Assembly: GCF_003334305.1 (NCBI RefSeq)
Contig: NZ_QOWS01000013.1
Length of the DNA: 64,000 nt
Direction: 5' to 3' (one strand)
Origin: Escherichia coli
GTDB taxonomy: Bacteria > Pseudomonadota > Gammaproteobacteria > Enterobacterales > Enterobacteriaceae
Within the stretch, counting starts at the first letter, position 1; each line of letters begins with the position of its first letter. Positions 38,822 through 38,856 of the stretch are shown piece after piece. The notes below the pieces were generated by a model. That model was not told where the DNA came from, did no database searches, and saw only the letters and a list, made by a program, of their open reading frames with translations. The translations under genes were made by a program, and so were the position numbers.

Positions 38822-38856
38822 ACATTATTGTGCATACAGATGAATTTTTATGCAAA
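38822..38856. promoter_or_regulatory. ARG-box operator pair in the argR promoter (autoregulation)
   Basis: CATTATTGTGCATACAGATGAATTTTTATGCA contains two adjacent ARG-box-like 18-mers (TGAATttttATgCA pattern) just upstream of the argR start. Confidence 0.7.

Follow-up and report, generated by a model that had tools for sequence, protein, structure and literature searches.

Does the arginine repressor gene of this Escherichia coli strain carry an operator for its own product, and, if it does, how far does that operator extend and how strong is it? The question concerns the AT-rich spacer 5' of argR in the window, i.e. the whole stretch of 64,000 nucleotides analysed here, where a preliminary description made from the sequence alone had proposed tandem ARG boxes and a further, weaker site on the other side of the gene.

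The argR gene (38324..38794, minus strand; 156 aa), which encodes the repressor and is itself under its control, was taken from the ORF list and corresponds to the annotated argR of matching RefSeq genomes (K-12 b3237). It is followed downstream by yhcN (37696..37959, minus strand), while mdh, from 39229 on the plus strand, is divergent from it (both from the ORF list). All 5426 complete E. coli genomes searched were matched by a 1.4-kb query across the site, several of them at 100% identity, with yhcN, argR and mdh as the features under the match on the E. coli chromosome; identity of at least 99% over this wider 1.4 kb was found in only 801 of them. The gene order around argR in K-12 is the same as in the window, and the spacer between argR and mdh (435 bp, 38% G+C) has changed in length by 1 nt compared to K-12. 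A probable ribosome-binding site of argR, GGGTGA (38798..38803, minus strand), is marked by GG(T) columns that are invariant just 5' of the ATG in the alignment. An Rfam scan of 37300-39400 gave no credible match, the best E-value being 0.34 and far under the gathering scores.

Architecture and match strength of the argR operator

Read on the argR strand, the region has the layout ...ctgactg TTTGCATAAAAATTCATC tg TATGCACAATAATGTTGT atcaaccaccatatcgggtgactt ATG, that is, two 18-bp ARG boxes and a 2-bp spacer that together make up the complete operator (38856..38819, minus strand), 24 nt from the argR ATG at 38794. The distal, promoter-upstream box TTTGCATAAAAATTCATC (38839..38856, minus strand) has 2 mismatches to the consensus WNTGAATWWWWATTCANW and was recognised by consensus, position weight matrix (PWM), de novo motif and conservation; the proximal and weak box TATGCACAATAATGTTGT (38819..38836, minus strand) has 5 mismatches and was recognised by consensus, PWM and conservation. 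Between them lies the spacer TG (38837..38838, minus strand), which sets a centre-to-centre distance of 20 bp, and a gap of 2 was also the best tandem register. The preliminary description had placed two adjacent ARG boxes directly 5' of argR. The string that it quoted, CATTATTGTGCATACAGATGAATTTTTATGCA, is indeed present at 38823-38854 and the tandem goes beyond chance; the span that it gave, 38822-38856, had the right location but lacked about 3 nt on the proximal side. Both the matrix built without argR and the de novo motif recover here an 18-bp imperfect palindrome of the type wnTGAATwwwwATTCAnw, and the 2-bp spacer agrees with tandem boxes 2-3 bp apart on one helix face. ArgR sites with 2- or 3-bp spacers were likewise accepted by Cho et al. 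2015 (PMC4381063).

Match strength was assessed with a palindromic log-odds matrix from seven biosynthetic K-12 operators (carAB, argF, argA, argG, argD, argECBH and argI), argR being excluded. This matrix was seeded with a consensus, and an EM search without any seed was run as a repeat on nine promoters of the regulon; the K-12 control regions used were carAB, argF, artJ, artP, hisJ, argA, argG, argD, argE/CBH and argI. The PWM scoring that the preliminary description had suggested gave 15.9 bits for the distal box (rank 2 of 63,983 window positions) and 5.8 bits for the proximal box (rank 72 of 63,983), values that put the pair within the range of proven operators. Their sum of 21.7 bits marks the top tandem with a 2-bp gap in the 64 kb, the second-best reaching 13.9 bits; it was attained by none of 300 dinucleotide-preserving shuffles of the window and by 25 of 20,000 shuffles of the 435-bp spacer between argR and mdh. 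Proven operators, either left out or held out, scored 19.8-38 bits, which places argR near the weak end with argD (21.9 bits) and hisJ (19.8 bits) as its neighbours, at a strength like that of established operators and beyond chance. The unseeded EM search converged on the motif AnTGnATWWWWATnCAnT, with which the distal argR box took rank 1 in the window and the argR tandem was again on top (22.8 bits). A consensus scan of the window for single boxes with at most 3 mismatches found 13 matches compared to 7.25 expected, which is not significant alone; only the tandem test discriminates, whereas the single-box scan does not.

Apart from the argR operator, the PWM scan of the 64 kb revealed one strong tandem only, TATGCATGAAATTTCGGT aat TTTGATTGATTATGCAGT at 61973-62011 (26.4 bits, 3-bp gap), located in the spacer upstream of gltB at about 430-470 bp before the start of the gltB ORF. 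ArgR has been footprinted upstream of gltBDF between -361 and -318, counted from the transcription start of gltB (PMC1784095); the tandem agrees with this footprint and is therefore a known site and a positive control for the matrix. At 54883-54900, the ARG-like box TTTGCATGAATATACAAA had a high score (16.9 bits) but no partner box. It falls in a variable segment (54500-55450) downstream of gltD, for which the annotation of other strains lists a DUF1016 N-terminal-domain protein and transposase remnants, and at least 80% of this segment was covered in only 721 of the 5426 genomes. With no partner box and in a variable region, it is probably a chance match and was rejected as an ArgR site.

Conservation and the predicted overlapping promoter

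The 38-bp operator has an exact copy in K-12 (3384641-3384678) and is unchanged in 5356 of the 5426 E. coli genomes, as determined with an 86-bp query over the operator. The element at this locus is the argR operator of K-12 in another strain and is as such already known; we take the K-12 operator, with two ARG boxes in the control region, to be the one described by Lim et al. 1987, Tian et al. 1992 and Maas 1994.

Conservation reaches far beyond the species. A scan of the genome collection with the ArgR protein provided 79 loci that reach from Enterobacterales through Vibrio, Shewanella, Pseudoalteromonas and Haemophilus to further groups. In the 300 bp upstream of argR, 37 of these 79 loci had a tandem of 20 bits or more, compared to none of the 79 in each of two control regions, and the median best tandem score was 16.8 bits upstream of argR compared to 2.5 and -4.4 bits in the controls; the site is thus kept upstream of orthologous genes. 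The layout is fixed in Enterobacterales, where a strong distal box is followed after 2 bp by the proximal box, and this in turn after about 25 nt by the ATG. The 2-bp register of the spacer is maintained in all aligned Enterobacterales, while its bases vary (identity 0.62). An alignment of 21 Enterobacterales displays a footprint whose invariant columns cluster in TTGCATAAAAATTCA and TGCATAAT, with a mean identity of 0.91 in the distal box and of 0.51-0.55 in the flanks. The proximal box is divided in this respect, as its left half TATGCA(T/C)AAT reaches an identity of 0.92 and its right half 0.68. Most relatives carry the proximal box as TATGCATAAT with 11-15 bits, Escherichia and Citrobacter as TATGCACAAT with 5.8 bits.

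The two boxes seem to be interwoven with a promoter. A predicted -35 element, TTGCAT (38850..38855, minus strand), of the proximal argR promoter lies inside the distal box and is nearly invariant in 21 species, and a predicted -10 element, CACAAT (CATAAT in most relatives; 38827..38832, minus strand), lies inside the proximal box, where conserved columns likewise point to it. This pair, TTGCAT-17 bp-CACAAT, was found by lenient hexamer search only and ranks under the default threshold of the promoter scan. At default settings the scan called only TTGATA-16 bp-TAACAT (38884..38911, minus strand; 9 of 12 consensus positions), a putative upstream promoter-like element conserved in Enterobacteriaceae only, and the regional match count equalled the shuffle expectation. 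Any transcripts started at this upstream element would run through the operator. The predicted transcription starts would be at about 38820 for the proximal promoter and about 38876 for the upstream one. Lim et al. 1987 reportedly already described two promoters of argR, of which the boxes overlap one.

The conserved half of the proximal box, TGCATAAT, could be kept as a -10 element instead of an ARG half-site. Position 38830 is C in Escherichia and Citrobacter compared to T in most other aligned Enterobacterales (CACAAT vs. CATAAT), and with this C the proximal box scores 5.8 instead of about 11 bits and the -10 element is also further from its consensus. It is conceivable, though on balance we find it rather unlikely, that operator and core promoter form one co-evolving unit in which the change from CATAAT to CACAAT has adjusted the gain of ArgR autoregulation in a lineage-specific manner and is not neutral drift.

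We consider it nearly certain that the site serves the E. coli arginine repressor gene itself as its operator, with two ARG boxes for autorepression by ArgR. It seems very improbable, in comparison, that the conserved block is nothing but the core argR promoter (-35 TTGCAT, -10 CATAAT/CACAAT) in AT-rich DNA and that it resembles ARG boxes by coincidence only. The two hexamers with the strongest conservation would indeed make a plausible -35/-10 pair at 17-bp spacing, and the proximal box alone accounts for just 5.8 bits; however, invariance extends through AAAAATTCA, a part of the promoter spacer that has no promoter role and forms the second half-site of the distal palindrome, with ATTCA at 38841-38845, so that the ARG palindrome, and not the promoter, accounts for its conservation. 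Among all ARG matches in the 64 kb, the distal box moreover ranks first or second. Other registers of ARG boxes before argR occur in Shewanella, Pseudoalteromonas, Haemophilus and others, in Shewanella for example with boxes overlapping a TTGACA hexamer and a 3-bp gap, and this other register together with the conservation of AAAAATTCA argues against reading the block as a promoter only, as does the published ArgR-dependent repression of the argR promoter (PMC3658269). Even less credit is given to the idea that the palindromes are bound mainly by another regulator of AT-rich sites or a nucleoid protein (e.g. Lrp or IHF) acting on argR or on mdh, which is divergent from it. The low G+C content of the spacer and the co-regulation of other arginine-regulon promoters by Lrp (PMC6640053) would be in line with this idea, but none of the tests run pointed to another motif, the operator is located about 370 bp away from the mdh start, and a matrix learned solely from ArgR operators found its match here at the strength of proven operators and in the correct tandem register.

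The proposed additional site at 38161-38180, which would have yhcN or the 3' end of argR as its target, is about as improbable as an explanation by the core promoter. The preliminary description had suggested an extra weak ArgR site near 38160, to be doubted if its matrix score turned out low, and the score is at chance level. Its quoted string ATAATGAATTTTGCATAATG is present at 38161-38180, corresponding to about 3385317-3385336 in K-12, and offers one good TGAAT half-site without a partner in a partly conserved block of the spacer between argR and yhcN; scores of 14-19 bits are also reached somewhere in this spacer in some relatives. However, these higher-scoring tandems occupy non-orthologous positions. 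The best 18-mer at 38161-38180 has 5-6 mismatches; the core matrix assigns it 0.0 bits, the extended matrix 3.1 bits and the de novo matrix -2.8 bits. An equal or better box was present in all of 5000 shuffles of the 364-bp spacer (100%), an equal or better tandem in 66-83% of 5000. This hedged second site is hence to be dropped. Nor was any other ArgR site accepted in the spacer between argR and yhcN, its best tandem (38091-38128) having 10.7 bits, a score reached by 14% of shuffles.

Other conserved features around argR and yhcN

Further elements became apparent in the same spacer. An inverted repeat, ATTCATTGTGTGAAT on the plus strand, is situated at 38200-38214; in relatives it reads ATTCAC-N3-GTGAAT on the strand of argR and yhcN and is kept in most of 11 aligned Enterobacteriaceae. 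Its half-sites are ARG-like but in the wrong order and spacing, and thus it receives no ARG-box score. Closer to yhcN, a near-invariant block at about 37985-38065 upstream of the gene contains TATACT and a CRP-like sequence, CGTGACCCTTATCACA (38001-38016). The latter has 1 mismatch to TGTGA-N6-TCACA, a pattern counted 4 times in the window with 2 expected, which is not significant. This block may be a promoter or leader of yhcN with a regulatory site. Just past the argR stop codon, a G+C-rich hairpin, CCCCGCCGCC-agaa-GCGACGGGG (38295-38317), is retained in relatives with different sequences in what looks like compensatory change. It is not followed by a T-run and was not called by the terminator scan; it is probably the argR terminator.

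Autoregulation and comparison with known operators

The argR promoter is repressed by arginine and ArgR with an affinity about tenfold weaker than at enzyme promoters, and the relative ArgR dissociation constants (Kr) fitted by Gerosa et al. 2013 amount to 25.7 for argR and 0.6-5.25 for enzyme promoters, with argA set to 1, from which these authors concluded that the weak argR site keeps a basal repressor level (PMC3658269). Across gammaproteobacteria, argR is a core member of the ArgR regulon (Leyn et al. 2016; PMC5343134). Other publications are more distant from the present site, as the subject of PMC11417348 is the ARG box of argI and not of argR, and PMC12219000 used the native argR promoter only for complementation. 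Operator scores in our analysis were inversely related to the published Kr values (Spearman -0.75 to -0.79; n=7-8, left-out scores), with argR having both the lowest score and the largest Kr in the set and the trend not being significant without argR.

The following mechanism can be envisaged. An ArgR hexamer loaded with L-arginine would place four winged-helix domains on the four half-sites of the two 18-bp boxes. Bound in this way, it would cover the likely -35 and -10 hexamers, and because these hexamers lie within the boxes, RNA polymerase would be kept off and argR would repress itself. Such a coverage of both predicted promoter elements fits what is described for arg promoters, where ArgR and RNA polymerase exclude each other from binding (Charlier et al. 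1992, cited after PMC3658269; PMC6245113). The poor proximal box and the weak total match would make this repression only partial, so that a basal amount of repressor might be kept even in excess arginine.

Autoregulation of argR by ArgR through tandem boxes, as the preliminary description had it, is thereby borne out by several lines of evidence: a PWM score in the operator range, fixation in E. coli, the footprint in Enterobacterales, the tandems at 37 of 79 loci, published repression (PMC3658269) and core regulon membership (PMC5343134). A genuine regulatory site had thus been recognised from raw sequence. Through its weak operator, negative autoregulation determines both the basal amount of repressor and the dynamics with which the arginine regulon as a whole responds. 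As argR autoregulation is textbook E. coli knowledge, its confirmation brings no new biology.

Compared to the argR operator of K-12, the 38 bp are identical, hold the same place relative to argR and lie within the same gene order; there are no differences in the operator. With the canonical ARG operators (argI, argF, argECBH, argA, argG, argD and carAB P2) it has in common two 18-bp imperfect palindromes (wnTGAATwwwwATTCAnw) in tandem. Canonical operators are found near the start codon and over the promoter and are bound by one arginine-loaded ArgR hexamer (PMC6245113, PMC6640053), and, judging from its sequence, the argR operator would behave likewise. The two differ in the spacer, which is 2 bp in the argR operator and 3 bp in the canonical ones, and in score, as 21.7 bits at argR contrast with 28-38 bits in most canonical operators and are similar only to the 21.9 bits of argD. 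The published relative dissociation constants point in the same direction (25.7 for the argR operator vs. 0.6-5.25 for the canonical ones; PMC3658269). Moreover, canonical operators control biosynthesis genes, while the argR operator controls the regulator itself and closes a negative feedback loop. The ArgR site upstream of gltBDF (Paul et al. 2007; PMC1784095) is likewise a tandem pair of ARG boxes, which this matrix also picked up in the window and which is supported by footprinting; it has, however, a 3-bp spacer, is located more than 300 bp upstream of its promoter and acts without excluding RNA polymerase, whereas the argR operator lies over the predicted promoter.
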